DNA of 64,000 nucleotides. Source: an uncultured Acidobacteriota bacterium. Its GTDB lineage: Bacteria > Acidobacteriota > Terriglobia > Acidiferrales > UBA7541. The notes below the pieces were generated by a model that had not been told where the DNA came from, made no database searches, and saw only the letters and a program-made list of their open reading frames with translations. How positions within the stretch are numbered: the stretch's first letter is position 1; each line of letters opens with the position of its first letter. Positions 19,717 through 42,931 of this stretch are shown piece after piece. The stretch is taken from assembly GCA_963761555.1 (NCBI GenBank), contig CAVXHD010000002.1, forward strand, positions 51,622 through 115,621. Direction: 5' to 3'. The translations under genes were made by a program, and so were the position numbers.

Positions 19717-19732
19717 GGCAATCCTCCTGCCA
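19717..19732 (-). promoter_or_regulatory. sigma-54 type -24/-12 promoter candidate for the EPS operon
   Basis: The minus strand reads TGGCAGGAGGATTGCC, with GG-N10-GC spacing as in the consensus TGGCACG-N4-TTGCW. The predicted start is about 87 nt upstream of the NusG-paralogue ATG. Confidence 0.45.
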
Positions 19733-20505: not shown

Positions 20506-21372
20506 GTGCTCTTTAGCGGATGGATCATATTCACTTCGCTCTTATTCGCACAACAGTTGCTCAGGCTGGTCCGGCTAGCCATGTCCAACCCGGACGCTTC
20601 CCATCTCATCCTGATCCCCTTTCTCGCCGCCGGCTTGTTCTATATCGAGCGGCGCTGCATTTTCCGCACCCTATCAACGAATGTGGGCTTTGGCACTCTG
20701 CTAGTAGCAATTGGAGTTGGACTGGTTGTCGGCACACGGCTGGCTGGCCAAGCCCTGACGCCCGATATTGAACTTACGGGCTATATTTCCGCGCTCGTCT
20801 TGTTTTGGACTGCTGGATTTTCCTTCTTCTTCGGAGGAGCGGCTTTGAAAGCGGCCCATTTCCCTTTGCTCTTTCTTTGGTTAATGGTTCCTCTGCCGGA
20901 CTTTCTCCTGCAGCGAATCATCTATCTGTTGCGGGTTGGCTCGGCCGATATCACGGGGGCTCTTTTTGACCTTCTTGGAGTTCCGGCGCTGAGGGAGGGC
21001 TTCGTTTTTCACCTTGCCCAGGTAAACATAGAAATAGCGAAGGAATGCAGCGGCATTCGGTCAAGCATGGCGCTTTTCGTCTTGGCGTTGCCGGTGGTGC
21101 ATTTCGGGCTGCGTCGTTTTTGGAAAAAAATTCTTTTCCTATTTTTCGCGCTCCTCATGATGATCCTGAAAAATGGCATCCGCATCGTCACCCTGACGGT
21201 GCTGGCGATCTACGTGGACCCGGCATTCCTTCACGGGAGCCTTCACCGCGATGGTGGTGTAGTTTTTTTCCTTTTAGGAATGCTGCTCTTGCTACCCGTT
21301 TATCTCTTATTGCAAGAGCAAACGCCTAAGTTGCCAGAAGCGGAGCTCGCTACCTCCACAAACCCGAGGTAA
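20506..21372 (+). CDS. exosortase (EpsH/Xrt family transpeptidase)
   Basis: 288 aa, GTG start, polytopic hydrophobic protein. Exosortase catalytic contexts IAKECSGIRS (Cys), LKNGIRIVT (Arg) and FLHGSLHRDGG (His). Confidence 0.85.
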   Translation: MLFSGWIIFTSLLFAQQLLRLVRLAMSNPDASHLILIPFLAAGLFYIERRCIFRTLSTNVGFGTLLVAIGVGLVVGTRLAGQALTPDIELTGYISALVLFWTAGFSFFFGGAALKAAHFPLLFLWLMVPLPDFLLQRIIYLLRVGSADITGALFDLLGVPALREGFVFHLAQVNIEIAKECSGIRSSMALFVLALPVVHFGLRRFWKKILFLFFALLMMILKNGIRIVTLTVLAIYVDPAFLHGSLHRDGGVVFFLLGMLLLLPVYLLLQEQTPKLPEAELATSTNPR

Positions 21373-23966: not shown

Positions 23967-24368
23967 TCAGTGAAAGTATATCCTCTGGGAACAGAAACCC
24001 GCCCTCGATTACCATACTCTGCACGGTCGGTGCCAGCTTTATGCAACTTGCCGTTGACTTGCCTTATCCGCATGTTGAACACCTGTAAGGAGTTACCGAA
24101 ATTCGGTTAGAAATTTCGTCAGGTGCCCTGGGGGTTTCGCTCAGGAGTCCCCTCAAAGTGGAAGAAATATACCCACTGTGTCCTGTTCTCTCCTCCCACT
24201 TAACCTAGGAACCGGGGCCATCCAAGCTCCTACGCTTGTGCATCTCAACTAGAGACTGAATCTTGCAGCTTACAACAACCATCTATTTTTCAACATTTTA
24301 GACGATGCCATCTCTTAAAGCCACTTGGGCCGAACCTGGATTTGGAATTGCTGCAAACAAACCTAAAT

Positions 24369-24384
24369 TGGCCGTGCTGTTGCA
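24369..24384 (+). promoter_or_regulatory. sigma-54 type -24/-12 promoter candidate upstream of the TPR lipoprotein gene
   Basis: TGGCCGTGCTGTTGCA, i.e. TGGC-N7-TTGCA with correct spacing. It lies only 20 nt before the ATG at 24404. A weaker second match, TGGATTTGGAATTGCT, is at 24337-24352. Confidence 0.4.
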
Positions 24385-24403
24385 AGTATATGAGTCTTAC
24401 AAA

Positions 24404-26694
24404 ATGATGACTCGAACTGCTTCCCGCTTGTTCCTGGTAACACTTGCCATCGGCCTGACAGTTTTCGCCGGTGGTTGCAACCGTGATCCTAATAAACAAA
24501 AGCTGAAGTTCCTCGCTGCGGGAGACCGTGCCTTCCAGCAGGAGAAAATCTCAGAGGCCATTATCGACTACGGGCGTGCTCTGCAGATAGATCCTCACTT
24601 CGCGGAAGCTCACTACAAACTTGCTCAGTGCTTTTTGAAGCAAAGCCTCTGGGGGGAGCCTACCAGGAGCTGTTGCGGACAGTGGACCTGCAACCTGAAA
24701 ATTGGGCTGCACAATTGGATTTGGGTAAGCTGCTCCTGCGGGCTGGCAAAGGTCAGGAGGCAAAGGATCGCGCGCTTCTCATTTTGCGGAGCAATCCACA
24801 AGATGCGGACGCTCAGGTTTTGCTCTCAAGTGCGGATGCGCGGCTCGGAAATCCAATGCAAGCGCTTAAAGAAGCCCAGGATGCAGTTAAAATGGCACCC
24901 AGCCGCTCCGATGTATACCTGTATCTCGGAATCCTGCAAGCACAGCAAGGCGCCTACTCGGAATCGGAGAAAAACCTGCTGAAAGCGCAGGAGCTCGACC
25001 CGAAATCTCCTGGCCCGTTGATGACCCTGGGCGATTTTTACGAACACCAGCGCCGCTGGACAGATGCAGAAAGGCAATTTGAGGCTGCGATACAAGCCGC
25101 TCCTAAAGATCCACTTCCTCGAGCCGCTCTTGCTGGGCTTTACCACAGCCAAGGTAAAGAGGACCTTGCGGAAAAAGTCCTAACAGACGCCAAGGTACAG
25201 CTGAGCACGGATCCCGGCGCTTATCGCCTTTTGGGCGACTACTTCGTGAGTCAAGGTGATACCTCTCGCGCGCTTGCGGAGTTTGCCTCGTTGTCACAAG
25301 AACATCCGAAAGATCTGAATGTTCGCAAATCCTATGTTCAGTTGTTAATCCTCGCCGGACGCATACCAGACGCCTCAAAGGCCGTCGACGAAATCTTGGC
25401 GAACTCGCCGCAGGATCCCGAAGCCCGCATCCTGAAGGGCGAAATCCTTTTGCGCCAGAAAAATAATGTGGAAGCCCTGTCCACCCTACAGCAAGCCGTA
25501 AAGGACGCTCCAGACAATCCCGGCGGCCACTATCAATTGGGTTTGGCTCTCCAGGCCAATGGCAACGAAAGTCAGGCGTTAGACCAATGGAAGAAAGCCG
25601 TACAGTTGCGTCCCACTCTGGCTGAAGCGTGGATCGCGCTTGGCTCCGCTGCGACGCAACGCGGTGACTGGCAGGGACTCGAAGGGGACGGCAATCAGCT
25701 TCAAAAAATCGCGCCTCGATCTCCAGAAGGCTATCTCTTCCACGCTAGCGCGCGCTTCAATCAAGGCGACGCCGCAAGCGCCGAAGCCGATTTGAATCGT
25801 CTGATTCAAATCGCTCCGCAGAGCCCGCTCGGTTATGCAAAATTGGGGCAGCTCCGCGCGGCCCAGAAGCGCTGGAAGGAAGCAGAGAACTACTACCAGG
25901 AGGCATTGAAGCGCACTCCAGATTTTCCTGACGCGATCCAAGGTTTAGCGGAATTGAACATGGAACAAGGCAAACCCGACCAGGCGCTCCTCTTCCTTCA
26001 AACTCAGCTCGACCACAATCCAAATAATGCAGTGCTCTATCTTCTTCAAGGCAAAGCATTGTTGCAGGAGAAAAAGTTCAGCGACGCCGAAAAGGCATTC
26101 TCGCATTGCGCGACATTGGACCAACAAAACCTCGCGGCCTTTGCCCTCCTAGGGCAGGTACAGTTGGCTCTCGGCAAGCCCGCGGATGCGATTTCAAGTT
26201 ACCAGCGAGCGATCGCCATATCGCCCAACAACGTGGTTCTCTACACAGCCCTGGGAGGCGCCTATGAAGCCGATGGAAATTGGCAGCAGGCCGAAGCCAC
26301 GTATCAGAAAGGCGTGGCGATTCAACCCGACAACGCTCTGCTCGCCAACAACCTCGCCTATCTGATGCTGGAGCATGGCGGCAGCGTTAATGTGGCGCTG
26401 ACTCTGGCCCAAACCGCCCGCAAAGGACTCCCCAAGCTTCCCAATACCGCCGACACTCTGGGTTGGGCCTATTATTACAATGGAGCTTTCTCCGTGGCGG
26501 CCCCATTGTTTGAAAATGCAGTCGAGCAAGCCCCTGCAAATTTGGCTTATCGTTATCATCTCGGCCTGGCATATCAGAAATTGAATGAGACCACACAGGC
26601 GCGTGCGCAGTTCGACAAAATTATTGCGCTGAATCCGGCATCTCCTCTGGCGGAGCAAGCACGCCAAGCCCTAAGCCAGATCTCCAGCCAATGA
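24404..26694 (+). pseudogene. PEP-CTERM-system TPR-repeat lipoprotein (PrsT-like), reading frame broken at a G6 tract
   Basis: ORF 24305..24982 supplies MMTRTASRLFLVTLAIGLTVFAGGC (lipobox) and the first TPR. ORF 24628..26694 continues the TPRs in another frame. One extra G in GGGGGG (24651-24656) would give ...FLKQSLWGGAYQELLRTVDLQPENW. Confidence 0.75.
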
Positions 26695-29390: not shown

Positions 29391-32300
29391 CTACGGTTTG
29401 GCAGACGCTTCGTTCGAGTTCACACTCTGGTTCCCACTCGAATCGACTGCTGTGGCTACGTAGTAGTAGGTCGTCCCACTCACCACGGTCGAATCCGTGT
29501 AGCTCAAAGTTGTTATCAACGATGGGTTGATCTGCGTATAGGGCCCGCCGCTTACCGTGCCGCGGTAGACGTTATACCCAGAAACCGTCGATGTGCTCGC
29601 AGTCCAGCTGAGCAAGACCGAGGGTGGACTTGCCGCCGTCCCTGTTCCGGTGAGAGTCACGGTCGCAGGCGATCCCGTAGCATTGCTCACAATCGAGATA
29701 CTGCCGCCAAGCGCTCCGGTTGTCGTCGGACTGAAAACCAGAGTCAGCGTTAGGTTCTGGTTGGGGGAAAGAGTCACAGGAGCGCTTCCGCCCGTCATCG
29801 AATAGCTCCCGCCGGTGAGCGTGATCTGCGAAATTGTAACGTTGGAATTGCCCGTATTTGTAATGGTCACGGTCTGCGGAGCAGAAGACGTTGCCGTTGT
29901 CACATTCCCAAAGGCCAGTGTGGTCGGACTGATGTTCAGCGTTAATGTCGCAGCGATCCCCGTCCCGCTCAGACTGACCGCTGTGGGTGAGGTCGGAGCG
30001 TTACTCACGATGGAGATGCTGCCGGACGCTGCTCCCGTCGAAGTCGGAAGGAATGCGCACCGTAATCGTGGTTTGTTTTCCTGCGTTTACACTTATAGGC
30101 AACGAATAGCCACTGATGCTGAATGCCGAACCAGTTTCCGTCACTTGAGTAATGGTCAATGTGGCCGTGCCTGTGTTGGTGACAATCAAGTGTTTGCGTC
30201 GAATTACTTCCCACCACCTCACTTCCGAAAGCTCATAGGCGATGGACTAACCTGGATCGCCGGAGCAGGAGCAGGGTTCACCGTTAGCGTCGCGCTCGTG
30301 CTTGTGATCGTCCCTGCCGTGTTCGTTACCACCACCCGGAACGTCGATCCACTATCCGTCATCGCGGTGGCTGGCGTCGTATAACTCGTCCCCGTCGCTC
30401 CCGCGATGTTCGCCCCGTTCTTCTGCCACTGGTAGCTCAGCGGCGCTGTTCCTCCCGCCACCACCGTGAACGTCGCCGTCTGTCCTGCTGTCACCGTCTC
30501 GTTCGCCGGCTGCGTCGTGATCGTCGGCGCTACCGCCGCCGCGTTCACCGTCAGCGTCGCCGCTGAGCTCGTGATCGTCCCTGCCGTGTTCGTGACCACC
30601 ACCCGGAACGTCGATCCACTGTCGGTCGTCGCTGTCGCTGGCGTCGTATAGCTTGTCCCTGTTGCTCCCGCGATGTTCGCTCCGTTCTTCTGCCATTGGT
30701 AGCTCAGCGGCGCTGTTCCTCCCGCCACCACCGTGAACGTCGCCGTCTGTCCTGCTGTCACTGTCTCATTCACTGGCTGCGTCGTGATCGTCGGCGCCAC
30801 CGCTGCCGCATTCACCGTCAGCGTCGCTGCGTTGCTCGTGATCGTCCCTGCCGTGTTCGTCACCACCACCCGGAACGTCGATCCGCTATCTGTCGTCGCC
30901 GTGGCTGGTGTCGTATAACTTGTCCCTGTTGCTCCCGCGATGTTCGCTCCGTTCTTCTGCCACTGGTAGCTCAGCGGCGCTGTTCCTCCCGCCACCACCG
31001 TAAACGTCGCCGTCTGTCCTGCTGTCACCGTCTCATTTACCGGTTGCGTCGTGATCGTCGGCGCCACCGCTGCCGCATTCACCGTCAGCGTCGCTGCATT
31101 ACTCGTGATCGTCCCTGCCGTGTTCGTCACCACCACCCGGAACGTCGATCCACTATCTGTCGTCGCCGTGGCTGGTGTCGTATAACTTGTCCCTGTTGCT
31201 CCCGCGATGTTCGCTCCGTTCTTCTGCCATTGGTAGCTCAGCGGCGCTGTTCCTCCCGCTACCACCGTAAACGTCGCCGTCTGTCCTGCTGTCACCGTCT
31301 CGTTTACCGGTTGCGTCGTGATCGTCGGCGCCACCGCTGCCGCATTCACCGTCAACGTCGCTGCATTGCTCGTGATCGTCCCTGCCGTGTTCGTCACCAC
31401 CACTCGGAACGTCGATCCACTATCCGTCGTCGCCGTTGCTGGCGTCGTGTAGCTCGCTGGCCTGTCGCTCCCGCGATGTTCGCTCCGTTCTTCTGCCACT
31501 GGTAGCTCAACGGCGCTGTTCCCGCCGCCACCACCGTGAACGTCGCCGTCTGTCCCGCTGTCACTGTCTCATTCACCGGCTGCGTCGTGATCGTCGGGGC
31601 TACCGCCGCCGCATTCACCGTCAACGTCGCTGCATTACTCGTGATCGTCCCTGCCGTGTTCGTCACCACCACTCGGAACGTCGATCCGCTATCCGTCGTC
31701 GCCGTTGCCGGCGTCGTGTAGCTCGTCCCCGTCGCTCCCGCGATGTTCGCTCCGTTCTTCTGCCACTGATAGCTCAGCGGCGCTGTTCCTGCCTGCCACT
31801 ACCGTGAACGTCGCCGTCTGTCCTGCTGTCACTGTCTCATTCGCCGGCTGCGTCGTGATCGTCGGCGCTACCGCCGCCGCATTCACCGTCAGCGTCGCCG
31901 CTGCGCTCGTGATCGTCCCTGCCGTGTTCGTGACCACCACCCGGAACGTCGATCCACTGTCGGTCGTCGCTGTCGCTGGCGTCGTATAGCTTGTCCCTGT
32001 CCTCCCGCGATGTTCGCTCCGTTCTTCTGCCATTGGTAGCTCAGCGGCGCTGTTCCCCTGCTACTACCGTAAACGTCGCCGTCTGTCCCGCTGTCACTGT
32101 CTCATTCGCTGGCTGCGTCGTGATCGTCGGCGCCACCGCTGCCGCATTCACCGTCAGCGTCGCCGCGTTGCTCGTGATCGTTCCCGCCGTATTTGTCACC
32201 ACGACATCGAACGTCGATCCGCTATCCGTCGTCGCCGTTGCCGGCGTCGTGTAGCTCGTCCCTGTCGCTCCCGCGATGTTCGCTCCGTTCTTCTGCCACT

Positions 32301-33303
32301 GGTAGCTCAACGGCGCCGTTCCCGCCGCCACTACCGTGAACGTCGCCGTCTGTCCCGCCGTCACTGTCTCGTTCACCGGCTGCGTCGTAATCGTCGGCGC
32401 TGCAGTTGCGGCCGTACCAGTTCCAGTGAGCGTAACCACAGACGATGGAGTCTGCGGATCGTTACTAGTGATCGTGAGACTTCCGGAATCGATTCCGATC
32501 GCCGTCGGCGTAAAGGACACGTTCAAAGTGGCGCTCCCAGCAGGCGCGATAGTGGCCGGCGTCGTTACCCCGGAAACTCCGAATGGCGCTCCCGTCAGGG
32601 AAATCAGCGAAATGACCAGGCTCGTCCCGCCCGCATTGTTGATAATCAACGTGCCCTTGGCCGTGGAACCCACCGCGGCGTTTCCCAGGCTCAAACTCGT
32701 AGTGCTCAAACTGATCTGCTGTGGCGCAGCGGTAGCCGCTCCCGTGATCGGGACTTGCTCTGAGGAAACTCCGCTGTCGGTTTGCACCGTGAGCGTTGCT
32801 GAAGCATTGCCCGGTGCCGTTGGATCAAACCACACTTGAAACACGCTGGATTGCCCAGCGGGCAAAGACATGGGCATAGTCAGGCCCGAAATTGTAAATT
32901 GAGCGCTCGAAACACTGGCTTGGGTGATGTCGAGTGAGACGGTCCCCGTATTCACGACCGTAGCATTCTGCGAGACCTTCTTACCGACGGTCGTGCTGGC
33001 AAACGTGAGGCTCGTCGGGTTGACTTGAATGGCTCCTTGCGATGGCTTCTCGCTCGATCCGCCGGCGCTCACTACTCCGGCGCAGCCCACGAGCGCAAGA
33101 ATCGGCGCCATCGCCACGACTGCCAACAACGGGCGTACTTGTGAGGAACTCCAGAGTTGCTGAAATACGCTCCGCGCCTCCGACGAGGCCGTTAAGTTCT
33201 TTGGCTTGCGGCTATTTTCTGTAAGATTTTTTCCTATACTCGCCGTGACGGCGCGTTGCCACAATGAAATCTGCGGAAAACTCACACCCGTCCTTAGTCT
33301 CAT
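29391..33303 (-). pseudogene. giant Ig-repeat surface lipoprotein, fragmented by multiple frameshifts
   Basis: Fragments 32041..33303 (lipobox LALVGCAG, ASH/PapD-like modules), 31689..32033, 31394..31672, 30219..31499, 30001..30222 and 29391..30008 (Fn3 tail) all read as one domain series. Indels lie near 32057, 32000, 31797, 31455, 30227, 30187 and 30054. Confidence 0.7.
30250..32400. repeat. tandem array, 8 x 267 bp (89-aa Ig-like unit)
   Basis: The marker TTCTGCCA(C/T)TG recurs at 30421, 30688, 30955, 31222, 31491, 31758, 32025 and 32291, giving spacings of 267,267,267,269,267,267,266. The unit encodes APTITTQPVNETVTAGQTATFTVVAGGTAPLSYQWQKNGANIAGATGTSYTTPATATTDSGSTFRVVVTNTAGTITSNAATLTVNAAAV. 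Confidence 0.9.
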
Positions 33304-33833
33304 CGTTTCCCCTGGGCCAAAGTTGTCACGTAGCCGGGAACGGGGGTGGGTCCGCTGAAGGCTCTGGTCTGGCTTGCCCTAACTTCATGCGAATGATAAA
33401 GAGCCGAATGGTCTGCAAACTACTGGATGGGAGAACAGTTTTGGAGCAGGCCCTCAAAATGGACCGAAGAGTTCACGGGGTTGTCCTGCGGACAGTTGGT
33501 GCTTGCCCCAATGGGCTAGCCGATTTATGAGGCAGTGCGCGAAATTTTCCAAGATGCGTTTTCCCAGCGGACTAAATTTATTTTTCGTCCGCTCCGGCGC
33601 ATGACAATGTTTTTAAACGGTGATTACGAATGCTGCCGGGGTGCGGAATCTGATTTCGTGAGCCATAAAACGGATTTCTGCTGCAGTTTTTTCTCGAACC
33701 TTTATCTGCGCGGATTTGCCTACGCGACAAGAAATCAAGCGCGCGGTGAGTCGTCCAGATAGCTGGTGTTCAAATCGGGCAGACAGTGCACAGGACAAGT
33801 ATATGCAGGGAGAAACTTCGAGGGCTCGCGTTG

Positions 33834-34859
33834 TCAATCCGCGGAAGGGTGAGAAGAGCTCGCTTGTGGAGCAGCCGCGTACCTCGAGCGTCTGGTAATA
33901 AAGCCGGCGTCACGAATCTTATAGATGAGTGTGCGATAGCTGATCTTCAGCGTCTCGGCAGTCTTGCGACGGTTCCATTGATTCGCCTGCAGCGCCTCGA
34001 GTATCAAATTCCTCTCCCGCTCGCGCACGGCATCCTTCGCAATCTGTTTGAGCGAGGCGCTTCCCTCGCCATTTGCGTTCGTCCGCGACGGGGGCGGACG
34101 TCTGGGAAATGTTCCGTCAAGAATTTTGGCGTCCGCGCCGATCAACACATGCCGCGCGATGCCGTTGGCCAGCTCGCGGATATTTCCCGGCCATTCCAGG
34201 TTTTGCAAATATTGCAGCGTCTCCTTGCTCAACGGTTCCGCTCGCTTTTCGTACTTCTCCTCGTAAAGTGCGCGGAAGTATTCCGCCAGCGAAGGTATGT
34301 CCTCTCTCCGTTCGCTCAGACGTGGCAGCTTCATGCGCACTACGTGTATCCGGTAATACAAATCGGCGCGAAACGTTCCCGCTTCGATTTCTTTCTGCAA
34401 GTCCTTGTTGGTGGCGCAAATAAGGCGCGTTTCAACTAGCTTTTCTTCGCCGCCGCCGATTCGCGAGAAGCGCCCATCCTGCAGGAAATGGAGGAGCTTG
34501 CTTTGCAGTCCCCCATCCAAATCCGCGATCTCATCGAGAAACAGAGTTCCGTTGTGCGCCAGCTCGACCCTTCCGGGCTTCGATGCGTGCGCCCCGGTAA
34601 ACGCGCCCTTCTCATAACCGAAAAGCTCGCTCTCCAGCAAAGTTCCCGGGATCGCCGCGCAGTTCACCTTCACGAACTGCCCGTTGCAGTTCGACGACTG
34701 CCTGTGGATCCATCGCGCCAGAACCTCTTTGCCGGTTCCGCCATCGCCCTGTAGAAGCACAGGGACATTTGTAGCGCAAACCTTCAAGGCGCGTTGCCGC
34801 ACCTCGGCCATGACTGCGGATCGCCCGAATAGCAGGTCATCCGGTGGCAGCAAATCCAC
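33834..34859 (-). CDS. sigma-54-dependent transcriptional activator lacking a receiver domain (AAA+ plus Fis-type HTH)
   Basis: 341 aa. Begins directly at the AAA+ module (LLFGRSAVMAEV, GDGGTGKEV Walker A). GAFTGA loop (EKGAFTGA). C-terminal HTH RKTAETLKISYRTLIYKI. Confidence 0.85.
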   Translation of the reverse strand: MDLLPPDDLLFGRSAVMAEVRQRALKVCATNVPVLLQGDGGTGKEVLARWIHRQSSNCNGQFVKVNCAAIPGTLLESELFGYEKGAFTGAHASKPGRVELAHNGTLFLDEIADLDGGLQSKLLHFLQDGRFSRIGGGEEKLVETRLICATNKDLQKEIEAGTFRADLYYRIHVVRMKLPRLSERREDIPSLAEYFRALYEEKYEKRAEPLSKETLQYLQNLEWPGNIRELANGIARHVLIGADAKILDGTFPRRPPPSRTNANGEGSASLKQIAKDAVRERERNLILEALQANQWNRRKTAETLKISYRTLIYKIRDAGFITRRSRYAAAPQASSSHPSAD

Positions 34860-34934
34860 CGGTTCGGTCCCCGCGCCTTTTCGAGATCTTTCCAGAATCC
34901 CTCTCCTGTCCCATTACTAGCTCCAAGGAAGGAT

Positions 34935-34950
34935 TGCATTCGGCAGGCCA
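34935..34950 (-). promoter_or_regulatory. sigma-54 type -24/-12 promoter candidate upstream of the receiver-less activator
   Basis: The minus strand reads TGGCCTGCCGAATGCA, with correct GG-N10-GC spacing. It lies about 75-90 nt upstream of the start at 34859. Confidence 0.35.
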
Positions 34951-35226
34951 CCGCCATCTCCAGGCAGAGATCCCATCAAACTCCCTGACCCTAAGTTAAA
35001 GTGTTTGTTTATCGACGTTTACGTAGAATCTACGAGGTTCGGTCATAGTACTGCATCTATAAGGAGGCCTTGCCCGAGAGGGTCCAAAGTGACAAAAGGT
35101 ATCCCGACTTTGATAACGATTTTCTCTATTTGCCTTGGTGGGGAAAAGTGATTAAGACCCGATTTCAAGCGAACAACAGTGGTCCTTAGAGCTTGGCGAA
35201 CAAGAATCGGCGCCGCAAGCCGACCT

Positions 35227-35565
35227 TTACGCTCTCGCACCTTCAGCTCGGATGATGTCATAGCGTTCTATCACGGCTGCGACTCCCATCCGCTCTGTGC
35301 CGTCCTCTGTGCGGTGCTCCACCCGCACGACCTTTCCGAACGCGCGAACAAATACTCCGCTCCCGCGCGTTATTTCTGCGGGCAAAGTCAATGTGATATC
35401 CAATTCCGAACCCGCCTCCATATCTTGATCGATCACGAAATACAACCCTCGCGTCGAGATGTCTCTCGTTTTTCCCTCTTGTGAATCGTCCTGGTGTTCG
35501 GCGGGTACTCGAATGATGACTGGCAAGGACAAATCATAACGACGAGCCGTTCGGCGTTCCGTCAT
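35227..35565 (-). CDS. PilZ-domain protein
   Basis: 112 aa. RRTARR (RxxxR) and DISTRG (DxSxxG) motifs at canonical spacing. Confidence 0.75.
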   Translation of the reverse strand: MTERRTARRYDLSLPVIIRVPAEHQDDSQEGKTRDISTRGLYFVIDQDMEAGSELDITLTLPAEITRGSGVFVRAFGKVVRVEHRTEDGTERMGVAAVIERYDIIRAEGARA

Positions 35566-35722
35566 TCCCCCGACCTCCCAAGTTTGCGGCGATGACGTGC
35601 TTTGAACCGCGCTGCCGGTCTGTGAACTTACTAGAAATCAATCAACTTTGCCAGTCCCGCACCCATCGCGTCCAGAAATAACGGGAAGCTCCGAAAGCCC
35701 CAGTTCCAAACTGCTGAAACTC

Positions 35723-37162
35723 CTATTCAGTCCGCGTTCCGACCGTCGCCGGCGCTTCCGCCGCTGCCGGAGCGGCCGCCGTACGCCGCGTACGTGGGGT
35801 ATCCAGGTTAAACTGCCGCATCTTATAGAGCAGCGCCTTGTAGCTGATTCCCAGCATCTTCGCGGCGTCCTTGCGGCACCACCGCGTTTTCTCCAAGGCG
35901 TCCGCGATCGCTTCCATTTCTGCCTCATCCTTCAATCCGCGGACGAGCGCCTTCAGTCCCTGCTCTCGCGGCGGCGCAGGCTCTTCACGCGGCGAAGTCC
36001 GCTGCCTTGCGGAAGACATCTCCACCAGTTCCCGCAAGCTGCCTTCGTCATCTTCCAGAATGACGTAGCGTTTCACGAAGTTTTCCAGCTCGCGCAAATT
36101 GCCAGGCCACGGATAATTTACCGCTGCATCCAACAAATACTTCGATGGCCCTGCCGGCGTCTTCCCGAATTTCTCGCTGTACTCCTCGAGAAAGTGCCGG
36201 AACAACAGCGGAATCTCCACCAGCCGCTCGCGCAGTGGCGGCACCAAAATCGAAAGCACATTCAGCCGGTAATACAAATCCTCGCGAAACCGTCCCGTCT
36301 TCATTGCCTCTTGCACGTCCACGTTGGTCGCCGCGAGCACCCGCACATCCGTATCGATCAGGTGCCTTCCTCCCAGCCTCGAATATTGGTGATCCTGCAG
36401 CACGTGAAGCAATTTGGCCTGCAACGGCGTGGTCATCTCCGCGATTTCATCCAGGAAAATCGTCCCTTTGTTCGCCATTTCAAATTTGCCTGGCTTGCTC
36501 CGGATCGCGCCCGTGAACGCTCCCTGTTCAAACCCGAACAGCTCCGACTCCAGCAGCTCCCCGGGCAACGCCGCGCAATTCACTTTCACGAATGGCTGAT
36601 TCCGCCGCTTCGAGCGCAGGTGAATCATCCGCGCCACGACTTCTTTTCCCACTCCGCTCTCCCCGCAAATAAAAACGGGCACATCCACTGGGGCAATCTG
36701 CAAAATCTGCTGGCGGATACGCACCATTTGCGGGCTGGCCGCCAAAAAACTCAGGTCTTCCGTCACTTGGTCGCAGTAATCGCGCAGCGCTTTGTTTTCC
36801 GTCGTGAGCTGCTTCTTCTGCCGCGACTTCAGCATCGCCGCATCCAGCTCCGTCTTTTCGAAGGGCTTCGTCAGGTAGTCGTGCGCTCCGATCCGGATCG
36901 CCTCCACCACTGTGCCCACTTCATTCGAACACGACAGCATGATTACGTTCAGGCTGCGGTCCACCTGCATCAGCTCCTTCAACGTCTCGATCCCGTTTAG
37001 CTCGGGCATCAAAACATCCAGAATGATGAAGTCCGGCCGCTCTCCACCGTTCACTTTGGCGATGGCTTCCCGTCCGGAGCTGACCGTCTCCACCTCGAAT
37101 CCATCCACCTCGAGCAACGTTTGCAAATACTTTCGAATGCTCGGCTCATCATCTACAACCAA
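35723..37162 (-). CDS. NtrC-family sigma-54-dependent response regulator (PrsR-like)
   Basis: 479 aa, TTG start. Receiver VVDDEPSIR...DFIILDVLMP. AAA+ module GESGVGKEV with the GAFTGA loop (EQGAFTGA). C-terminal HTH AAKMLGISYKALLYKM. Confidence 0.9.
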   Translation of the reverse strand: MVVDDEPSIRKYLQTLLEVDGFEVETVSSGREAIAKVNGGERPDFIILDVLMPELNGIETLKELMQVDRSLNVIMLSCSNEVGTVVEAIRIGAHDYLTKPFEKTELDAAMLKSRQKKQLTTENKALRDYCDQVTEDLSFLAASPQMVRIRQQILQIAPVDVPVFICGESGVGKEVVARMIHLRSKRRNQPFVKVNCAALPGELLESELFGFEQGAFTGAIRSKPGKFEMANKGTIFLDEIAEMTTPLQAKLLHVLQDHQYSRLGGRHLIDTDVRVLAATNVDVQEAMKTGRFREDLYYRLNVLSILVPPLRERLVEIPLLFRHFLEEYSEKFGKTPAGPSKYLLDAAVNYPWPGNLRELENFVKRYVILEDDEGSLRELVEMSSARQRTSPREEPAPPREQGLKALVRGLKDEAEMEAIADALEKTRWCRKDAAKMLGISYKALLYKMRQFNLDTPRTRRTAAAPAAAEAPATVGTRTE

Positions 37163-37234
37163 GTATTCTTTCTTTAGCGACCATCGATTTCTCCCTTTGC
37201 CCTTACCAAATTCCTCAAAATCTAAGGGTACAAG

Positions 37235-38465
37235 CTATCCTTGATCCATCGGCAGCAAGAAAGTGAACTTGCTTCCCGTCTTCGGCTCGCTCTCCACCCA
37301 AATCTTTCCGCGATGCGCTTGAATCAGGCGCTTCGCAATCGCCAGCCCCAGTCCCATTCCGGAAGTGTTGCGGTCAACGCGCACAAAATCCTCGAAGATT
37401 TCCTGATGATGCTCCGCCGGTATCCCTCCGCCGGAGTCCGCCACGGAAACCTCGACGCTATTGGGCCGCGGCAGCCGGAATCGCCGCCGCTCTTCCACTG
37501 GCGCAACCGCCGCGACGCGACGCTCCCAGAAATGGGGAGCCGCTTTAAATGTCACTGTTCCTCCCGCAGGCGTATGTTTCAGCGAGTTATCCAAAAGATT
37601 CGCGGCTGCTTGTTGCACCTTTTGGTAATCGAACCGGAATGTCGCTATGGACGGATCGAAGCTCGCCTCCAGCTTTACACCCTTTCGCTGGAAAGCTTCC
37701 GACCAGCGTTTCGCCAGTTCTTCCAGGCAATCGCGAAGATCATTCTCTCGAAGCTGTAATACAAGTTTGCCGCTTTCCAGCGCGGAATAATTCAGGAACA
37801 TCGACACCAAGCGCACCAGCCGCTCACAGCTTTCCTTCGATTCCTCTAGAATGTCCCGCTGTTTGTCCGTCAAACGCCCTAGCGACCCCGTGAGCATCAA
37901 ATCGTAGTAACCCTTAATCACGGCAAGAGGCGTTTTCAATTCGTGCGCCGCAGACGCCAGAAACACCGTCTTCTGCCGGTTCACTTCCTGCAATTTCAGA
38001 TATGCTGCAAGCAAATTCCGGTACGTGATTTCTCGTTCCTGTAGCAGTTCCTGCACCGTGAGCTGCGTCGCTACCTCGGCGGCCGTCTCCCCCGTAGATA
38101 CCGTCTTCAAGCTGCACCAGCAAGCACCCCGGCTCTGGAATCCATTGAATTCGGGCGCGCGTCTTCTTCTCGCCCCGCGCCACGTCTACTTCCAGCTCGC
38201 GCTCGCCAGCGTCGATCTTTTGCGCTATCTCGCTGGGCTCAACCTTCAACAAGTCGTTGAAGAGATTCACTTGCTCGGAATCGCTCGGAGCATCCGCACC
38301 AAGAAACTGGCGCGCGGTGGCGTTCGACATCAGTAGCCGCCCGTCCCTTTCCGTGATCCAGATTGCTGTTTTTGCGGCGCTCAGGAGCGCACTCACGAGT
38401 CCCGCGGGCAAGGCGAGGACCTTCCGATGCTCAGGAGCTGTAAGGGGAGCAAGTATCCCACTCAT
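37235..38465 (-). pseudogene. cytoplasmic PAS sensor histidine kinase, frame broken between PAS and HisKA
   Basis: ORF 37914..38465 carries the PAS-like part (AIWITERDGRLLMSNATARQFLG ... CLLVQLED). ORF 37235..38110 carries the HisKA H-box SAAHELKTPL plus HATPase_c (DSGGGIP, GMGLGLAIAK). Removing one nt near 38101-38102 gives LLVQLEDVSTGETAAEV. Confidence 0.7.
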
Positions 38466-38695
38466 TTAGTGTGTTCGCCTCCCCAGGGTAACAGGAAAAC
38501 TTTTTCCCTAGCGGACTGCTCATGCTGGCAGAGGTGTCCAGGACTGTCAATGGCAAAAGCGTTCCATTTGCACATTTACGGAACCCAAGTGGCTAGACCG
38601 TGCACAAGACTAGGTGCGTCAAAAAATGTCGCTCTGAACTTGTCCATAATTCATTGAAAACAAAACTTGTTATTGCGTTCTTCGCACCCCAAATA

Positions 38696-38711
38696 TGGCA
38701 CTCGATATGCT
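38696..38711 (+). promoter_or_regulatory. sigma-54 type -24/-12 promoter candidate upstream of PilZ gene
   Basis: TGGCACTCGATATGCT, i.e. a perfect TGGCAC -24 box with GC at the correct -12 position. It ends 36 nt before the ATG at 38747. Confidence 0.45.
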
Positions 38712-38746
38712 CGTTCCCGTACTAGATCTCGGGTACTAAACCAACC

Positions 38747-39100
38747 ATGGCACACAGTGGTCTTCTGAAGGACGGTCAGCGCGTGGAGCCCTCTAACCTC
38801 AGACGGTCCCCTCGCATTCGTTTGCAAATGCCGGTCTTCTTGCGCGCTACGGACACCTCCGGTGTCGAATTCATCGAGCTCACCAAAACTCTCAATATTA
38901 GTGCCACGGGCACCTGCGTAGCATCTGCGCACATTCTCCGGCCCGAACAAATCGTCCACCTGACGATTCCCGCACCTTCCTCGGCAGCTTCAGGGGTCGT
39001 TCCCAGCGAGACCCCTCCCATTACCGCCAGGGTCCTCCGTCAGGATTCTGCGGGGGATATGCGGCTTTTTGGGCTGGAATTCCTCAAGCCACTTGAGTAA
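38747..39100 (+). CDS. PilZ-domain protein
   Basis: 117 aa. RRSPRIR (RxxxR) and NISATG (NxSxxG). Confidence 0.75.
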   Translation: MAHSGLLKDGQRVEPSNLRRSPRIRLQMPVFLRATDTSGVEFIELTKTLNISATGTCVASAHILRPEQIVHLTIPAPSSAASGVVPSETPPITARVLRQDSAGDMRLFGLEFLKPLE

Positions 39101-39277
39101 AGTGTTGCCTCTTTGAGAGACGGCTCGTCCCGGACCGGGTAAAAAGGTTACGTCGACTCGGACTGTTGTCGCGCCCATCTTTCAAGAAGTTGTTCTATAC
39201 TCAGCTTTTTCAAGGAGATAGTCAGGAACCAAGGTCACCCAGATGCGCCCCGGAGCCGGTCGACGCCCTTCTTTAAT

Positions 39278-39293
39278 TGGTCTTAGGCTTGCT
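39278..39293 (+). promoter_or_regulatory. sigma-54 type -24/-12 promoter candidate upstream of the GGDEF-PilZ gene
   Basis: TGGTCTTAGGCTTGCT, i.e. TGG-N8-TTGCT with correct spacing. It lies about 77 nt before the ATG at 39370. Confidence 0.35.
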
Positions 39294-39369
39294 CCTTATA
39301 GAAAGAGAAAGCAGTATGTGCTTTCCCCAAACCCCGCGGGGATAGGCTAGATTCAGGTGTAAACCGGAT

Positions 39370-40662
39370 ATGCCCAGCCCCGGCGCCCCTGCGCCCCCGC
39401 GCTTGCCGATTGAGGACTCTTATCTCGAGCTGCTCGCTGACACGCTCGAAAGCTTGGATATTCCTGCGCGCGGCCAGTTTCTGCAACGCTATTTCCGCAC
39501 CATCACCCATCTTGAACTTCGAGAAGCGCAGTGCGTGCAGCTTTGGGATGAGATGCTCACCCGCAGGCGCGAACTCAGCGAACACATGGAGCGGCAAATC
39601 TCCTTGAAAACGGCCCTTATGGATGTGCTTACTTCCGCTGGACTTTTCCGCGTTCCCATCCTCATCGAGTACGACGAACTCAAAAAACTCCAGTTGAACG
39701 CCGTCACGGATGCGCTCACCGGCCTCTACAACCGCCGTCTCTTTAGCGAATCCTTCGAAAAAGAGCTAAATCGTGCGCGCCGTTATGGCCAGCCTCTCGG
39801 CCTCGTCATTCTCGATTTGCACCGCTTCAAGGAAGTCAATGACAAGCACGGACATCCGCGTGGCGATGAAGTCTTGCGCGCTGCCGCCGCAACGCTGAAA
39901 AAAGCTCTCCGCACTTCGGACTCCGCCTTCCGCATCGGCGGCGACGAATTCGCTCTCCTGCTCCCCCAAACGGATGCCGCACAGGCCGTTGCGCTCAGTC
40001 GCCGCATCGGCACGGTCTTCAGCGAATCCATCACCCACTTCCAGATGGGCGTTAGCGTCAGCATGGATCACGGCGTCGCCACTTTTCCGCAGGACGGCGA
40101 ACAAGCCGATCAATTGATTCGTGTTGCGGATGAGCGCCTCTACCGGTTGAAACACGCAAATCACGGCAAAACTCCCGCCGCTGGTCCCCGCACGGAACTT
40201 GCCTCTAGTTCCGCTCCCGAGCCATCCTCTGCCTCCTCCGAGCACCAGCCCTCCGCTCCTCGACCTATCCCCTTCGAATCGAAGCGTCCGCCCGAAAAAT
40301 CCGAAGCCCATCTCGCTGCCGCCGCTTCCGCAACGGCTTCTGAAATCTCCGGCAACCAGGCTCTCGCCGTTCCAACGCCTGCCCATGTCTATCCCGTGGC
40401 ACGCAAAGCCGAGCGCGTCTCCATGACCGGCACAAATGCGTACGCCGTTCTCGGCGAACAGGGCGTTCGTCGCGCCCGCGTTTTGGATCTCGGTTTTGGT
40501 GGAGTTGCTCTCGAACTGGAATCGCACGAAGAAATTCCGGAAAGCATTCTCGCCGTTTTGCACGTGCCCATTCTTCCGCCAGTACGCGTCAATCTTAAGC
40601 CCGTGTGGACCCAGCGCAGCCAGCAAGGCATCTATCGCGTCGGCTGCGCCTTTGTCTCGTGA
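39370..40662 (+). CDS. diguanylate cyclase (GGDEF with I-site) fused to a C-terminal PilZ-like domain
   Basis: 430 aa. DALTGLYNRR, LDLHRFKEVNDKHGHPRGDEVL, and RTSD (RxxD) five residues before GGDEF (RTSDSAFRIGGDEFALLL). Low-complexity linker. The C-terminus carries RKAER and DLGFGG, a PilZ-like pair. Confidence 0.85.
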   Translation: MPSPGAPAPPRLPIEDSYLELLADTLESLDIPARGQFLQRYFRTITHLELREAQCVQLWDEMLTRRRELSEHMERQISLKTALMDVLTSAGLFRVPILIEYDELKKLQLNAVTDALTGLYNRRLFSESFEKELNRARRYGQPLGLVILDLHRFKEVNDKHGHPRGDEVLRAAAATLKKALRTSDSAFRIGGDEFALLLPQTDAAQAVALSRRIGTVFSESITHFQMGVSVSMDHGVATFPQDGEQADQLIRVADERLYRLKHANHGKTPAAGPRTELASSSAPEPSSASSEHQPSAPRPIPFESKRPPEKSEAHLAAAASATASEISGNQALAVPTPAHVYPVARKAERVSMTGTNAYAVLGEQGVRRARVLDLGFGGVALELESHEEIPESILAVLHVPILPPVRVNLKPVWTQRSQQGIYRVGCAFVS

Positions 40663-40705
40663 AAGCCCGCATCTTTTTCTGAAGCCCTTCCGTCGACATT
40701 CTGCT

Positions 40706-41239
40706 TCAACTGCCAGCATGTGCCAAATGGAGCCGCAAATGGCGTGAAGTGAACAGCAATGCTTGTTGGATGTGCGCGAGTCCCAAGCCCCAGCGCAGCA
40801 GCGCCTGCTCCGGCGAATCTCCCTTCGCGGTGAGCCTCACCCACAGCGCGAGCCCCTTCTGCTTCCGCTGATCCTCGACATCGGAACCGCCGACCGAAAT
40901 GCTTGCCGCCGTCAAACACAATATCGTTTCGAGCGAGTCCCTGGACCCAGCTTCGCTCAAAAGCTCAACGAGTTTCTCCACCAGCATGAAATGCAGGCCC
41001 TTCTGTCGGCTGTACTCGGCCTGCCGAAACTCCAGAACAATATCCTCTGAGCAAACAACCCCGACCGCCGAGGCGGTCTCCCCAGGTCCCGCCAAAGGCT
41101 GGGCGATACAAAACAGTGAATCGTCACTCTCAATCGCTGCCAGAAAATTCTTGACCGCCAGGTTTTGCCCCGCCTCTCCATTGCCTCTGCGGGTCTCTTT
41201 CATGCCTTTTTCTATCTTCTCAATCACTTCGACGCGCAT
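40706..41239 (-). CDS. hypothetical protein
   Basis: ORF 40706..41281 trimmed to MRVEVIEKIEKG (ATG at 41239). No recognisable motif. Confidence 0.4.
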   Translation of the reverse strand: MRVEVIEKIEKGMKETRRGNGEAGQNLAVKNFLAAIESDDSLFCIAQPLAGPGETASAVGVVCSEDIVLEFRQAEYSRQKGLHFMLVEKLVELLSEAGSRDSLETILCLTAASISVGGSDVEDQRKQKGLALWVRLTAKGDSPEQALLRWGLGLAHIQQALLFTSRHLRLHLAHAGS

Positions 41240-41380
41240 GCCTGCGAAGCTACGCGAACGGAATTCGCCCCGCAAGAGCAATCGCGTTTAGGCTCCTCTT
41301 CTCGTTCCCTCGCTTCTCTGATTTCAGCCGCATCTCTCTCCTGCTAGAATCTCCCCGCCTTTCCATCGCGCGGAGGCAGC

Positions 41381-41890
41381 ATGAATGAACCCACCGCAAG
41401 CCGTCCTCACTGGCCAGACTACGGAGCAATGCCCACGGACCCCGAAAAGGGACTGAAACCTTGGAGCTGGGCCCTCGAGCGTCTCGAAAAATCCCATAAC
41501 TATTGGATTGCTACGACGCGTCCCGGCGGCCGTCCTCACCTCATGTTGGTCTGGGGCGTCTGGTGGGAAGATGCTTTCTGGTTCAGCACGGGCCCGAACA
41601 CTCGCAAGGCAAAAAACATCGCCGCGCACGCACACTGTTGCATCGGCACGGAACACGCCGACGAAGCCGTCCTCCTCGAAGGTAGTCCTCAGGAAATCAA
41701 AGACCGCGCCGTCTGGAAGCGTCTTGCCGCCGTCTACAACGCAAAATATGGCGGCGATGTCGAACCCATGCTCACCGCCTCCGGCGGCAACGTCTACCGC
41801 GTCGAGCCGCAAACCGCCTTCGCCCAGGACGAGCACACCCCCAACTTCGCCGAGTCCGTCACCCGCTGGCGCTTCGCTCAAAAGAAGTAA
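41381..41890 (+). CDS. pyridoxamine 5'-phosphate oxidase-family (split-barrel flavin/F420-binding) protein
   Basis: 169 aa. YWIATTRPGGRPHLMLVWGVWWEDAFWFSTGPNTRKAKNI is typical of the PPOX-like family. Confidence 0.65.
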   Translation: MNEPTASRPHWPDYGAMPTDPEKGLKPWSWALERLEKSHNYWIATTRPGGRPHLMLVWGVWWEDAFWFSTGPNTRKAKNIAAHAHCCIGTEHADEAVLLEGSPQEIKDRAVWKRLAAVYNAKYGGDVEPMLTASGGNVYRVEPQTAFAQDEHTPNFAESVTRWRFAQKK

Positions 41891-41914
41891 GCCCAAGCGA
41901 TCCTGTCCCGCCCC

Positions 41915-41943
41915 TTGACGCGCCCTTCCATACCGTCTAATAT
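41915..41943 (+). promoter_or_regulatory. sigma-70 type promoter candidate
   Basis: TTGACG-N17-TAATAT, ending 22 nt before the ATG at 41965. Confidence 0.4.
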
Positions 41944-41964
41944 TTAGACATCAATTGGATTCTT

Positions 41965-42513
41965 ATGACCAAATACCCACTCAAGCTTAAACAGGCAAGC
42001 GCCGTCCTCGAGGTTCAGCCTAAGGAATTGCAAAACCTGGTCCAATTCGGCGTCGTAAGGCCTCGGCGTTCGCAAGGCGTCTATCTCTTCGACGCCAATA
42101 CGCTCCTCGTCGCAAAGATCGCTTCTTGCCTGAAGGAATATCTCGGAACCCGCACGAATGTACTTTCCAGACTTATGGAAGCCTTCTTATCGGCCGGCGA
42201 AAAAATGAAGTCTGAGAATCCAGAATACGTTGTTTTTAACTGCCGCCTCTCTAAGAAAGAGTGCCCGGTGAAGCTCGCCGTGCCGTTTCGCGCGTTGGGA
42301 CAGCAAATCGAAGAACGCCTCAGCCGCGCCGCGCTCCATCGGGATTTGCCGCGAGGGCGGAAGCGACGCGGATGGAAGCAGGAATTTCTACGCTCGTTGG
42401 CAGACGCCGCAAAAGACATCGGCGAAGTTTCCGAACAAGAAATCCTTCGGACCATTCGCGCCTATCGCAAGCAAAAACGGGTGCCGGAGATCACCGTTGT
42501 CGCCGAACCCTAA
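41965..42513 (+). CDS. putative antitoxin / HTH protein paired with PIN toxin
   Basis: 182 aa. N-terminal HTH-like LKQASAVLEVQPKELQNLVQFGVV. 17-nt overlap with the downstream PIN gene. The family is not firmly recognised. Confidence 0.4.
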   Translation: MTKYPLKLKQASAVLEVQPKELQNLVQFGVVRPRRSQGVYLFDANTLLVAKIASCLKEYLGTRTNVLSRLMEAFLSAGEKMKSENPEYVVFNCRLSKKECPVKLAVPFRALGQQIEERLSRAALHRDLPRGRKRRGWKQEFLRSLADAAKDIGEVSEQEILRTIRAYRKQKRVPEITVVAEP

Positions 42514-42931
42514 GAGGCGAAGGCCGCGTTTCGTCATCGACACGAGTGTCTTGGTCGCCGGCATATCCGGCTTCAGAGATCAATACGTGACTGGCACGAA
42601 TCCAAGCGCGGATCTACTCTTCCGGTGGGCGCAGAAGAACAACTTTATTTGGTTGGTTTCTGAGGATATTTTGGAAGAATACAAGGCCGTTCTAAAACGG
42701 CTTCGCGTCCATCCGAATCATATCGGCAGTGTCGTCAATCTGATTCGGGAACGCGCCCAATTTTTCAAACTTCGTTCCGCACCTGGGATTTCTCCCGATC
42801 CCAAAGATGACCCATTTTGTTTTTGTGCCAATCAAGGCAAAGCGCACTTCCTTGTCACGTTGGATCTCAAGCACTTTCCGCAACACCTCCTAAAGGCTTC
42901 CGTCGTCTCGCCCGCACGATTTCAGACTTAG
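42497..42931 (+). CDS. PIN-domain toxin (TIGR00305-like family)
   Basis: 144 aa. FVIDTSVLVAG, SEDILEEYKAVLKRL, PKDDPFCFCANQGKAHFLVTLDLKHF. Confidence 0.75.
   Translation: MSPNPKRRRPRFVIDTSVLVAGISGFRDQYVTGTNPSADLLFRWAQKNNFIWLVSEDILEEYKAVLKRLRVHPNHIGSVVNLIRERAQFFKLRSAPGISPDPKDDPFCFCANQGKAHFLVTLDLKHFPQHLLKASVVSPARFQT

Follow-up and report, generated by a model that had tools for sequence, protein, structure and literature searches.

Are cyclic di-GMP (c-di-GMP) signalling and sigma-54-dependent transcription coupled in Candidatus Acidiferrales, a soil order of the Acidobacteria that is abundant and still uncultured, and, if they are, which of the two acts on the other? The question is raised by a 64,000-nucleotide stretch of DNA from an uncultured Acidobacteriota bacterium (contig CAVXHD010000002.1 of assembly GCA_963761555.1), which was analysed at its full length and to which we refer as the window. 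Within a 6.8-kb island (33834-40662), beside an exosortase-type polysaccharide locus, the window encodes the receiver-less sigma-54 activator EBP1, the small PilZ protein PilZ1, an NtrC-type response regulator, a histidine kinase, a second small PilZ protein (PilZ2) and a GGDEF-domain diguanylate cyclase. We found no paper addressing regulation in this order.

A first-pass annotation of the window had proposed that c-di-GMP signalling is coupled to sigma-54 transcription in the island, that the PilZ proteins might act on the activators, and that the combination with the exosortase locus forms a coherent circuit. The coupling is supported by the conserved -24/-12 promoters that we find at the genes for PilZ2, the cyclase and EBP1 and at two polysaccharide operons. 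The conserved promoters argue for an action of activators on c-di-GMP and polysaccharide genes; an action of c-di-GMP on the activators does not show in the DNA. The circuit is real, conserved and uncharacterised, coherent, and built from known parts. In our preferred reading, to which we assign a probability of roughly 0.6, the island would lie at the regulatory heart of a cascade, dependent on sigma-54, by which c-di-GMP signalling and exopolysaccharide production are induced together.

The island is a conserved gene block of Candidatus Acidiferrales

The proteins encoded in the window are 96-99% identical to those of one Candidatus Acidiferrales metagenome-assembled genome (Acidobacteriota, Terriglobia), which we treat as the sister genome. 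Our conservation scan used the NtrC-type regulator as query and returned 80 species-representative genomes of the same order. The core block, in the order cyclase ← PilZ2 / kinase → NtrC-type regulator → PilZ1, is found in 80/80 of these species-level genomes and is retained wherever the contig is long enough; the regulator is present in 80 loci, the kinase core in 79, PilZ1 in 77, PilZ2 in 76 and the cyclase in 75. Gene order kept across 80 species-level genomes argues that the clustering is not due to chance. An EBP1 orthologue follows PilZ1 in 66 of the 80 loci, at a variable distance. All of the open reading frames (ORFs) listed in the first-pass annotation exist where it placed them and have the domains that it described, and the gene set, for which it had proposed a synteny check, is a conserved syntenic module at 80/80 regulator loci.

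Sigma-54 promoter motifs are conserved upstream of c-di-GMP and polysaccharide genes

We searched for sigma-54 promoters as TGG-N9-TGC motifs within 200 nt upstream of the start codon in orthologous loci; since a weighted consensus promoter score gave too many matches, this stricter pattern combined with conservation was used instead. Three genes of the island carry the motif almost invariably. The predicted promoter of the cyclase gene (TGGTCTTAGGCTTGCT, 39278-39293, plus strand, 77 nt before the ATG) is present in 75/75 loci, and those of pilZ2 (TGGCACTCGATATGCT, 38696-38711, plus strand, 36 nt before the ATG) and ebp1 (TGGCCTGCCGAATGCA, 34935-34950, minus strand, 76 nt before the start codon) in 66/67 loci each. 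Among control genes the motif is found in 2-8% of loci (PilZ1 2/75, kinase 4/50, regulator 4/79, hyp191 1/26 and PNPOx 1/47). Accordingly, the kinase, regulator and PilZ1 genes, all three in tandem on one strand, have no sigma-54 promoter before them. The stricter pattern matches 13 times in the window, three of these matches being in the ~1.1 kb of island intergenic DNA and all three correctly oriented.

Two further promoters are predicted in the polysaccharide locus. The first (TGGCACCGACCGTGCA, 24020-24035, minus strand) lies upstream of the operon of the wzz-like chain-length-determinant gene; it lies no more than ~75 nt from the start in 28/33 orthologues from Acidiferrales, and is present at that position in 0/24 Terriglobales-type orthologues. 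The second (TGGCAGGAGGATTGCC, 19717-19732, minus strand) precedes the gene for a UpxY/RfaH-like antiterminator and is present in 13/16 orthologous loci. Upstream of the exosortase (2/20) and tyrosine-kinase (6/32) genes the motif is at background. All five predicted sigma-54 promoters of the window combine the -24 GG and -12 GC elements at exact spacing with correct orientation and conservation. This conservation is the main new evidence of our analysis, and, judged by it, the genes for c-di-GMP synthesis and reception appear to be direct sigma-54 targets.

The pilZ2, cyclase and ebp1 promoters are each preceded by conserved blocks and an AT-rich stretch, which is the usual layout of enhancer, bending site and promoter. 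In the intergenic region that separates the kinase gene from pilZ2, orthologue alignments contain a near-invariant 40-bp block (38544-38583) with the dyad AATGG-N10-CCATT and a minus-strand TTGACA. It precedes the pilZ2 promoter by ~115-150 bp and is a candidate enhancer for the regulator and/or a candidate promoter of the kinase operon. The near-invariance of this block parallels the invariant helix-turn-helix (HTH) domain of the regulator, which suggests that the regulator binds here. A conserved palindrome (GGAAAAnnTTTTCCC, 38494-38508) lies just upstream of the kinase start and is at least 90% conserved in 67 loci. The aligned candidate enhancer upstream of the ebp1 promoter (35089-35126, minus strand) is an inverted repeat of the GGAAAT...TTTTTCC type; the pair has a spacer of ~22 nt and is related to the palindrome at the kinase start. 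Upstream of the cyclase promoter, the aligned conserved blocks (39137-39242, plus strand) comprise GGGTA-N5-GTTAC, the AT-rich TTTTGTAA and GGTTACCC, and together form a candidate enhancer and bending site. Finally, a conserved dyad, GTGG-N11-CCAC (24157-24177, minus strand), is a candidate enhancer ~125 bp upstream of the wzz-like promoter. This dyad and AATGG-N10-CCATT are each unique in the window.

Two other conserved elements lie close to these promoters. The hexamer GTACTA recurs at conserved positions, twice in the short pilZ2 leader (38717-38739, plus strand, CCGTACTAG-N6-GGTACTAA) and once at 35041-35051 (minus strand), at a distance of ~100 nt from the ebp1 promoter on its upstream side; another regulator may bind to it. 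In the cyclase leader there is a highly conserved block (CCCCAAACCCCGCGGGGATAGGC, 39325-39347, plus strand) with the core palindrome CCCCGCGGGG. Of 37 diverse orthologues, 35-37 retain its GC core pairs; the block shows no covariation among them and could be either an operator or an RNA hairpin. A search of 33000-42000 for riboswitches and other known RNAs gave only a sub-threshold Rfam match to malK-III (E 0.094), which we rejected.

Two sigma-54 activators and a soluble histidine kinase

Both activators belong to the NtrC family of enhancer-binding proteins: they match PF00158 (1e-64 and 2e-67) and HTH_8, and in both we could read the Walker A and GAFTGA motifs, the latter at residues 85 and 214. 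EBP1 (33834-34859, minus strand) consists of an AAA+ domain with GAFTGA and a Fis-type HTH (Pfam Sigma54_activat, 1.2e-64, with AAA_lid and HTH_8). Its maximal ORF of 341 aa leaves at most ~9 residues ahead of the AAA+ domain, and it therefore has no receiver. More than 100 EBP1 homologues of ~324-410 aa found in a homologue search likewise lack an N-terminal domain, and only receiver-less orthologues occur among the 120 EBP1 matches listed, which argues that this architecture is genuine; EBP1 orthologues are 49-76% identical. The regulator (35723-37162, minus strand) has the full REC, AAA+ and HTH architecture (Pfam REC, Sigma54_activat and HTH_8), with the receiver Asp in the motif ILDVLMP. 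It is 87-99% identical in the 80 species, and its HTH is 100% invariant. For both genes the original assignments, to a receiver-less activator and to an NtrC-type response regulator, are borne out.

The kinase gene (37235-38465, minus strand) appears in the window as two overlapping ORFs in different frames (37235-38110 and 37914-38465, minus strand). The extra base at 38106 that separates them is missing in the alignment of three kinase orthologues and in contigs from four independent soil-metagenome runs, which otherwise match the window exactly. The frame break is therefore an assembly error, a spurious 1-nt insertion, and the real gene is intact and encodes 409 aa. The product carries HisKA and HATPase_c domains with an H-box reading AAHELKTP. 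While the kinase domains of the PAS histidine kinase originally described here are thus present, its ORF is split by this base and its PAS match (E 9e-4) is weak, falling below the Pfam cut-off, and we refer to the N-terminus as PAS-like. The most hydrophobic 19-residue stretch of this N-terminus has a mean Kyte-Doolittle hydropathy of 1.59, and the kinase is predicted to be soluble. Across loci the kinase core is 84-98% identical; the N-terminal sensor part is mostly 29-67% identical and reaches 88% only in the sister genome.

PilZ1, PilZ2 and a diguanylate cyclase with a predicted PilZ-fold tail

PilZ1 (35227-35565, minus strand, Pfam 2.4e-10) and PilZ2 (38747-39100, plus strand, Pfam 1e-8) are, as first annotated, stand-alone PilZ proteins, scoring 41.1 and 35.8 bits against the PF07238 cut-off of 22.5. 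Judged by their sequences, both are single-domain receptors with canonical c-di-GMP-binding motifs: PilZ1 has the RxxxR and DxSxxG elements as RRTAR...DISTRG, PilZ2 reads RRSPR...NISATG, and the motifs are kept in 72-73 orthologues. The PilZ1 gene lies downstream of the regulator gene in 77/80 loci; PilZ2 is 62-97% identical in 76 loci.

Possible partners of PilZ1 were sought by a fusion ('Rosetta stone') test, in which 1.84 billion representatives were searched, yielding 333 clusters at E < 1e-10, and the best 150 examined. No activator fusion was found among these 150 PilZ1-subfamily representatives, all but two of which are proteins of 54-192 aa. Five distant PilZ1 relatives have as neighbours EpsI, a GT2 glycosyltransferase with a methyltransferase, another PilZ, an HTH gene, or nothing informative; no activator or kinase adjoins any of the five, the contigs being short. 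Two of these relatives, 38-48% identical, lie beside polysaccharide genes: one (L223:847-1918) adjoins an exosortase-associated EpsI gene and another (L226:1138-3375) the GT2 glycosyltransferase and methyltransferase genes. These neighbourhoods hint at a link between the PilZ1 subfamily and the polysaccharide systems of other lineages.

The cyclase (39370-40662, plus strand) is composed of a helical N-terminal domain, a GGDEF domain with an I-site, a disordered linker and a C-terminal tail (approximately residues 345-430). Its GGDEF domain matches PF00990 at 8e-44, and the I-site and active site, RTSD-N5-GGDEF, read RTSDSAFRIGGDEF at residue 181. With GG[DE]EF and an RxxD motif five residues upstream, the protein has the sequence signature of an active diguanylate cyclase. 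The N-terminal domain (39370-39690, residues 12-90) has no family match in Pfam; AlphaFold predicts four helices here with good confidence (pLDDT score up to 90), in a model in which the GGDEF part is poorly predicted.

The first-pass annotation had listed a GGDEF cyclase with an I-site and a PilZ-like tail. By sequence this tail misses the Pfam PilZ cut-off (19.8 vs 22.5 bits, E 0.001, covering model positions 3-86 of 102); a profile search against Protein Data Bank sequences gave no match, and precomputed PilZ annotation is found in 0/120 cyclase homologues. We then assessed the fold using two AlphaFold models, one full-length and one of the tail only (tail pLDDT ~59-85), as Foldseek queries. 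For the full-length model, each of the 27 best matches is a PilZ domain. For the tail-only model, most of the top ranks go to PilZ domains, with modest E-values (2e-3 and weaker), query-normalised TM-scores of 0.55-0.69 and root-mean-square deviations of 2-3 Å; the solved domains matched include those of BcsA, MrkH, YcgR and PA0012 (TM-score up to 0.69). Because both models match solved PilZ domains first, we accept the tail as a predicted, divergent PilZ barrel. Its RKAER motif is invariant, as is its second motif, DLGFGG, in which Gly replaces the Ser of the canonical D/NxSxxG.

Two gene groups flank the cyclase gene on its far side. Convergent with it lies the gene for a 191-aa protein (hyp191, 40706-41281, minus strand), which has no match in Pfam or NCBIfam and is found in only 29/80 loci, at 39-87% identity. 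At 41965-42931 (plus strand) the genes for a MerR-like HTH protein (182 aa) and a PIN-domain protein (144 aa) overlap, a layout typical of a toxin-antitoxin pair; both are in the sister genome and are missing from several other loci.

The exopolysaccharide locus and an adhesin-like gene

In its upstream part the window has genes for an exosortase, a chain-length determinant of the XrtA type, a tyrosine kinase, a priming sugar transferase, an amidotransferase, a TPR protein resembling PrsT and an antiterminator resembling UpxY. The exosortase (EpsH family, 20506-21372, plus strand) is identified by Pfam (1.8e-43) and NCBIfam, and the chain-length determinant (Wzz/GNVR, 22413-23966, minus strand) by Pfam and TIGR03007. 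The PrsT-like gene (24305-26694, plus strand, TIGR02917) diverges from the wzz-like gene; the UpxY/RfaH-like antiterminator gene (19047-19619, minus strand, profile match) heads the sugar-transferase operon. The best matches of the polysaccharide proteins are XrtA-system families, each just under the curated cut-off: EpsH 105.1 vs 105.55, TIGR03007 264.5 vs 278.85 and PrsT 307.3 vs 312.2. We accordingly describe the locus as XrtA/PEP-CTERM-like. No genes for PEP-CTERM proteins are present in the window. Systems of the XrtA/PEP-CTERM class are known to be sigma-54 regulated, through PrsK/PrsR/PrsT (Haft et al. 2006, PMC1569441) and, in Aquincola, with a dependence on RpoN (PMC9850573).

Ten species have the island and the polysaccharide locus on a single contig. 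In nine of them the distance between the two is 3-28 kb, with the polysaccharide locus always on the side of EBP1 and its strand unchanged; in one species it is 58 kb away. The association of the island with an exosortase exopolysaccharide locus, as originally proposed, is thus upheld both by linkage in 9/10 contigs and by the sigma-54 promoters at two of the polysaccharide operons. The proposed link to an adhesin fares poorly: in 32 loci the stretch from EBP1 to the adhesin-like gene contains no sigma-54 promoter, and only 39/80 loci have an adhesin-like match.

The adhesin-like gene downstream of EBP1 (29391-33303, minus strand), with Ig repeats and a choice-of-anchor-D domain, is broken into several ORFs across ~267-bp tandem repeats (30219-32033). 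In the sister genome (L001) the adhesin-like matches are continuous over ~4.2 kb, and the fragmentation is probably an artefact of additional assembly indels or of repeat collapse. The PrsT-like TPR gene is likewise split, into ORFs 24305-24982 and 24628-26694, one G being missing after 24650; for this indel and the one at 38106, intact forms are found in contigs from three to four independent soil-metagenome runs. Two large ORFs inside the polysaccharide locus (7068-9119 and 10730-11911, both minus strand, 683 and 393 aa) have no Pfam or NCBIfam match.

A predicted sigma-54-dependent cascade and its alternatives

How might these parts work together? In the cascade that we favour, the kinase would sense a cytoplasmic cue via its fast-evolving N-terminal domain and phosphorylate the regulator. 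Bound to the 38544-38583 block, the phosphorylated regulator would switch on the sigma-54 promoter of pilZ2 and probably also those of the cyclase and ebp1. The cyclase would then raise c-di-GMP, the rise being limited by the I-site and possibly also by the PilZ tail. EBP1 would form a second tier that plausibly drives the polysaccharide promoters; as it has no regulatory domain, it would be controlled mainly by the amount made. PilZ1 and PilZ2, as well as the cyclase tail, would read the c-di-GMP level, and PilZ1 and PilZ2 would relay it to partners. Within this scheme, we infer both the assignment of promoters to activators and the targets of the PilZ proteins.

Several observations weigh against the cascade. 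The upstream blocks of the promoters have no motif in common, only the k-mer GGAAAA/TTTTCC recurring at two of them. More than one activator is therefore probably involved across the five promoters, and activators encoded elsewhere could be responsible. Several long loci have no EBP1 within 8 kb of the regulator. The gene for sigma-54 itself, rpoN, is neither in the window nor in any of the loci that we fetched; we infer its presence in the host from the GAFTGA motifs of both activators. We found no RNA runs containing the window sequence. Furthermore, the match to the known regulators of XrtA systems is imperfect: the regulator (370.6 bits) and EBP1 (289.6 bits) score below the PrsR cut-off (TIGR02915, 502.6) and so fall outside that family, and the island kinase is soluble and PAS-like, unlike the transmembrane PrsK (TIGR02916), which is not among the 25 best of the 79 family matches for the kinase.

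The alternatives concern mostly what the PilZ proteins do. PilZ1 and/or PilZ2 could be c-di-GMP-dependent adaptors that alter the ATPase or oligomeric state of the regulator or EBP1, with c-di-GMP feeding back on sigma-54 transcription, which is compatible with the cascade as an added layer. The PilZ1 gene is placed between those for the regulator and EBP1 in 77/80 loci, and EBP1 lacks a cis-regulatory domain, as does PspF, a receiver-less activator that is controlled in trans by PspA. HapZ-SagS (PMC12564702), RpfR-BerB (PMC9684580) and PspA-PspF are partial precedents. However, the support comes from gene adjacency: none of the 150 best PilZ1-subfamily representatives is fused to an activator, 0/5 distant relatives (on short contigs) adjoin an activator or kinase, and a PilZ-activator precedent was not found in the literature searched. 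We consider such adaptors unlikely, and are more sceptical still of stand-alone PilZ proteins as c-di-GMP-gated trans-regulators of sigma-54 activators. In one version of this idea, PilZ1 may restrain EBP1 or the regulator until the sigma-54-induced cyclase raises c-di-GMP, closing a feed-forward/feedback loop. At least as likely as the adaptor role, and a possibility that we hold tentatively, is a post-translational action of the PilZ proteins and the cyclase tail on the machinery of polysaccharide synthesis or export, following the logic of Alg44 and BcsA in trans. The island would then combine sigma-54 induction with allosteric c-di-GMP licensing, and the activators would be untouched by the PilZ proteins. 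This would fit with the distant PilZ1 relatives that adjoin EpsI (L223) and GT2 and methyltransferase genes (L226), with the linkage of the island to an XrtA-like locus in 9/10 shared contigs, and with the PilZ domains of BcsA and Alg44 being among the best structural matches of the cyclase tail. Just two of the contexts are informative, though, both of them on short contigs, and in the window the PilZ1 and PilZ2 genes lie outside the polysaccharide operons.

We regard it as improbable that the activators sense c-di-GMP directly, as FleQ, FlrA, VpsR and EpsI/Nla24 do, while the PilZ proteins serve unrelated outputs. Both activators align over the full AAA+ domain with the structures of FleQ (E ~1e-60) and VpsR (2e-40), a similarity at the family level only. 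Part of the c-di-GMP binding site of FleQ lies in the segment preceding the AAA+ domain, which is missing from EBP1, as it starts ~9 residues before the AAA+ core; and three dedicated PilZ domains nearby make another receptor unnecessary. We have equally little confidence in a chance association with the polysaccharide and adhesin genes, in which the module would have some other output and the polysaccharide promoters would be served by activators encoded elsewhere. The differing upstream blocks of the promoters, the 58-kb distance in one species, and the adhesin-like gene, which has no sigma-54 promoter and a match in only 39/80 loci, would be expected in that case. However, the constant side and strand of the linkage in 9/10 shared contigs, and a wzz-like promoter that is present in the island-bearing order and not at that position in orthologues of the neighbouring order, speak against coincidence.

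What the cascade would mean

Our analysis defines a compact regulon in which five conserved sigma-54 promoters, two activators, one cyclase and three PilZ domains are found beside an exosortase polysaccharide locus, and it extends to Candidatus Acidiferrales the idea that sigma-54 controls the cell exterior. The regulon is testable without culturing the organism; the promoters, candidate enhancers and proteins are all open to reconstitution in a heterologous host. If PilZ proteins do act on the activators, this would constitute a new class of c-di-GMP effector target; and if a PilZ protein gates an activator, this would be the first PilZ-activator adaptor mechanism, in which c-di-GMP would throw the switch of a PspA/PspF-like control.

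Parallels in known systems

A close parallel is PrsK/PrsR/PrsT. Here, too, an exosortase polysaccharide locus has as its neighbour a two-component system of the NtrC type that depends on sigma-54, with sigma-54 promoters that have conserved upstream motifs, and with a PrsT-like TPR gene. The differences are that the promoters of the window precede polysaccharide-biosynthesis and c-di-GMP genes rather than genes for PEP-CTERM proteins, and that the island has, in addition, a cyclase, three PilZ domains and another activator, which lacks a receiver.

The predicted cascade also resembles the flagellar cascades FleQ → fleSR and FlrA → flrBC, in that an activator would drive the sigma-54 promoter of a second activator gene and c-di-GMP is part of the circuit. 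In those cascades c-di-GMP is bound directly by the activator at the top, and a two-component system forms the tier below it. In the island the order is apparently reversed, with the two-component system on top and the receiver-less activator below; c-di-GMP synthesis and receptors would be outputs of the cascade, and the output would be polysaccharide and not flagella. As a minimal AAA+ and HTH protein without a regulatory domain, EBP1 is similar to PspF (with its partner PspA) and to HrpR/S (with HrpV). In contrast to these, it has its own conserved sigma-54 promoter, so that control by synthesis would be sufficient, and we identified no PspA-like or HrpV-like partner.

For PilZ1, a possible model is HapZ of Pseudomonas aeruginosa, a stand-alone PilZ adaptor that modulates the pathway of the histidine kinase SagS (PMC12564702). 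Both are small single-domain PilZ proteins with canonical motifs that are associated with a two-component system; however, the partner in P. aeruginosa is the receiver domain of a hybrid kinase, whereas the island has an NtrC-type system. In other bacteria, cyclase genes and polysaccharide loci are already known to be controlled by sigma-54 (PMC11722192, PMC9684580, PMC3162934). In Burkholderia cenocepacia, BerA, BerB and RpfR control the Bep polysaccharide, and the c-di-GMP enzyme RpfR binds the sigma-54 activator BerB (PMC9684580), while in Vibrio alginolyticus RpoN controls vps and c-di-GMP genes (PMC11722192). As would be the case in the island, sigma-54, an activator and c-di-GMP proteins act jointly on a polysaccharide locus in these systems, but the sensors of B. 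cenocepacia are the CRP-like BerA and the PAS-GGDEF-EAL protein RpfR, with no PilZ proteins involved. Finally, EpsI/Nla24 of Myxococcus and VpsR of Vibrio are NtrC-family regulators of polysaccharide loci linked to c-di-GMP, as the activators described here would be. While EpsI/Nla24 and VpsR bind c-di-GMP themselves, the Candidatus Acidiferrales island encodes separate PilZ receptors.

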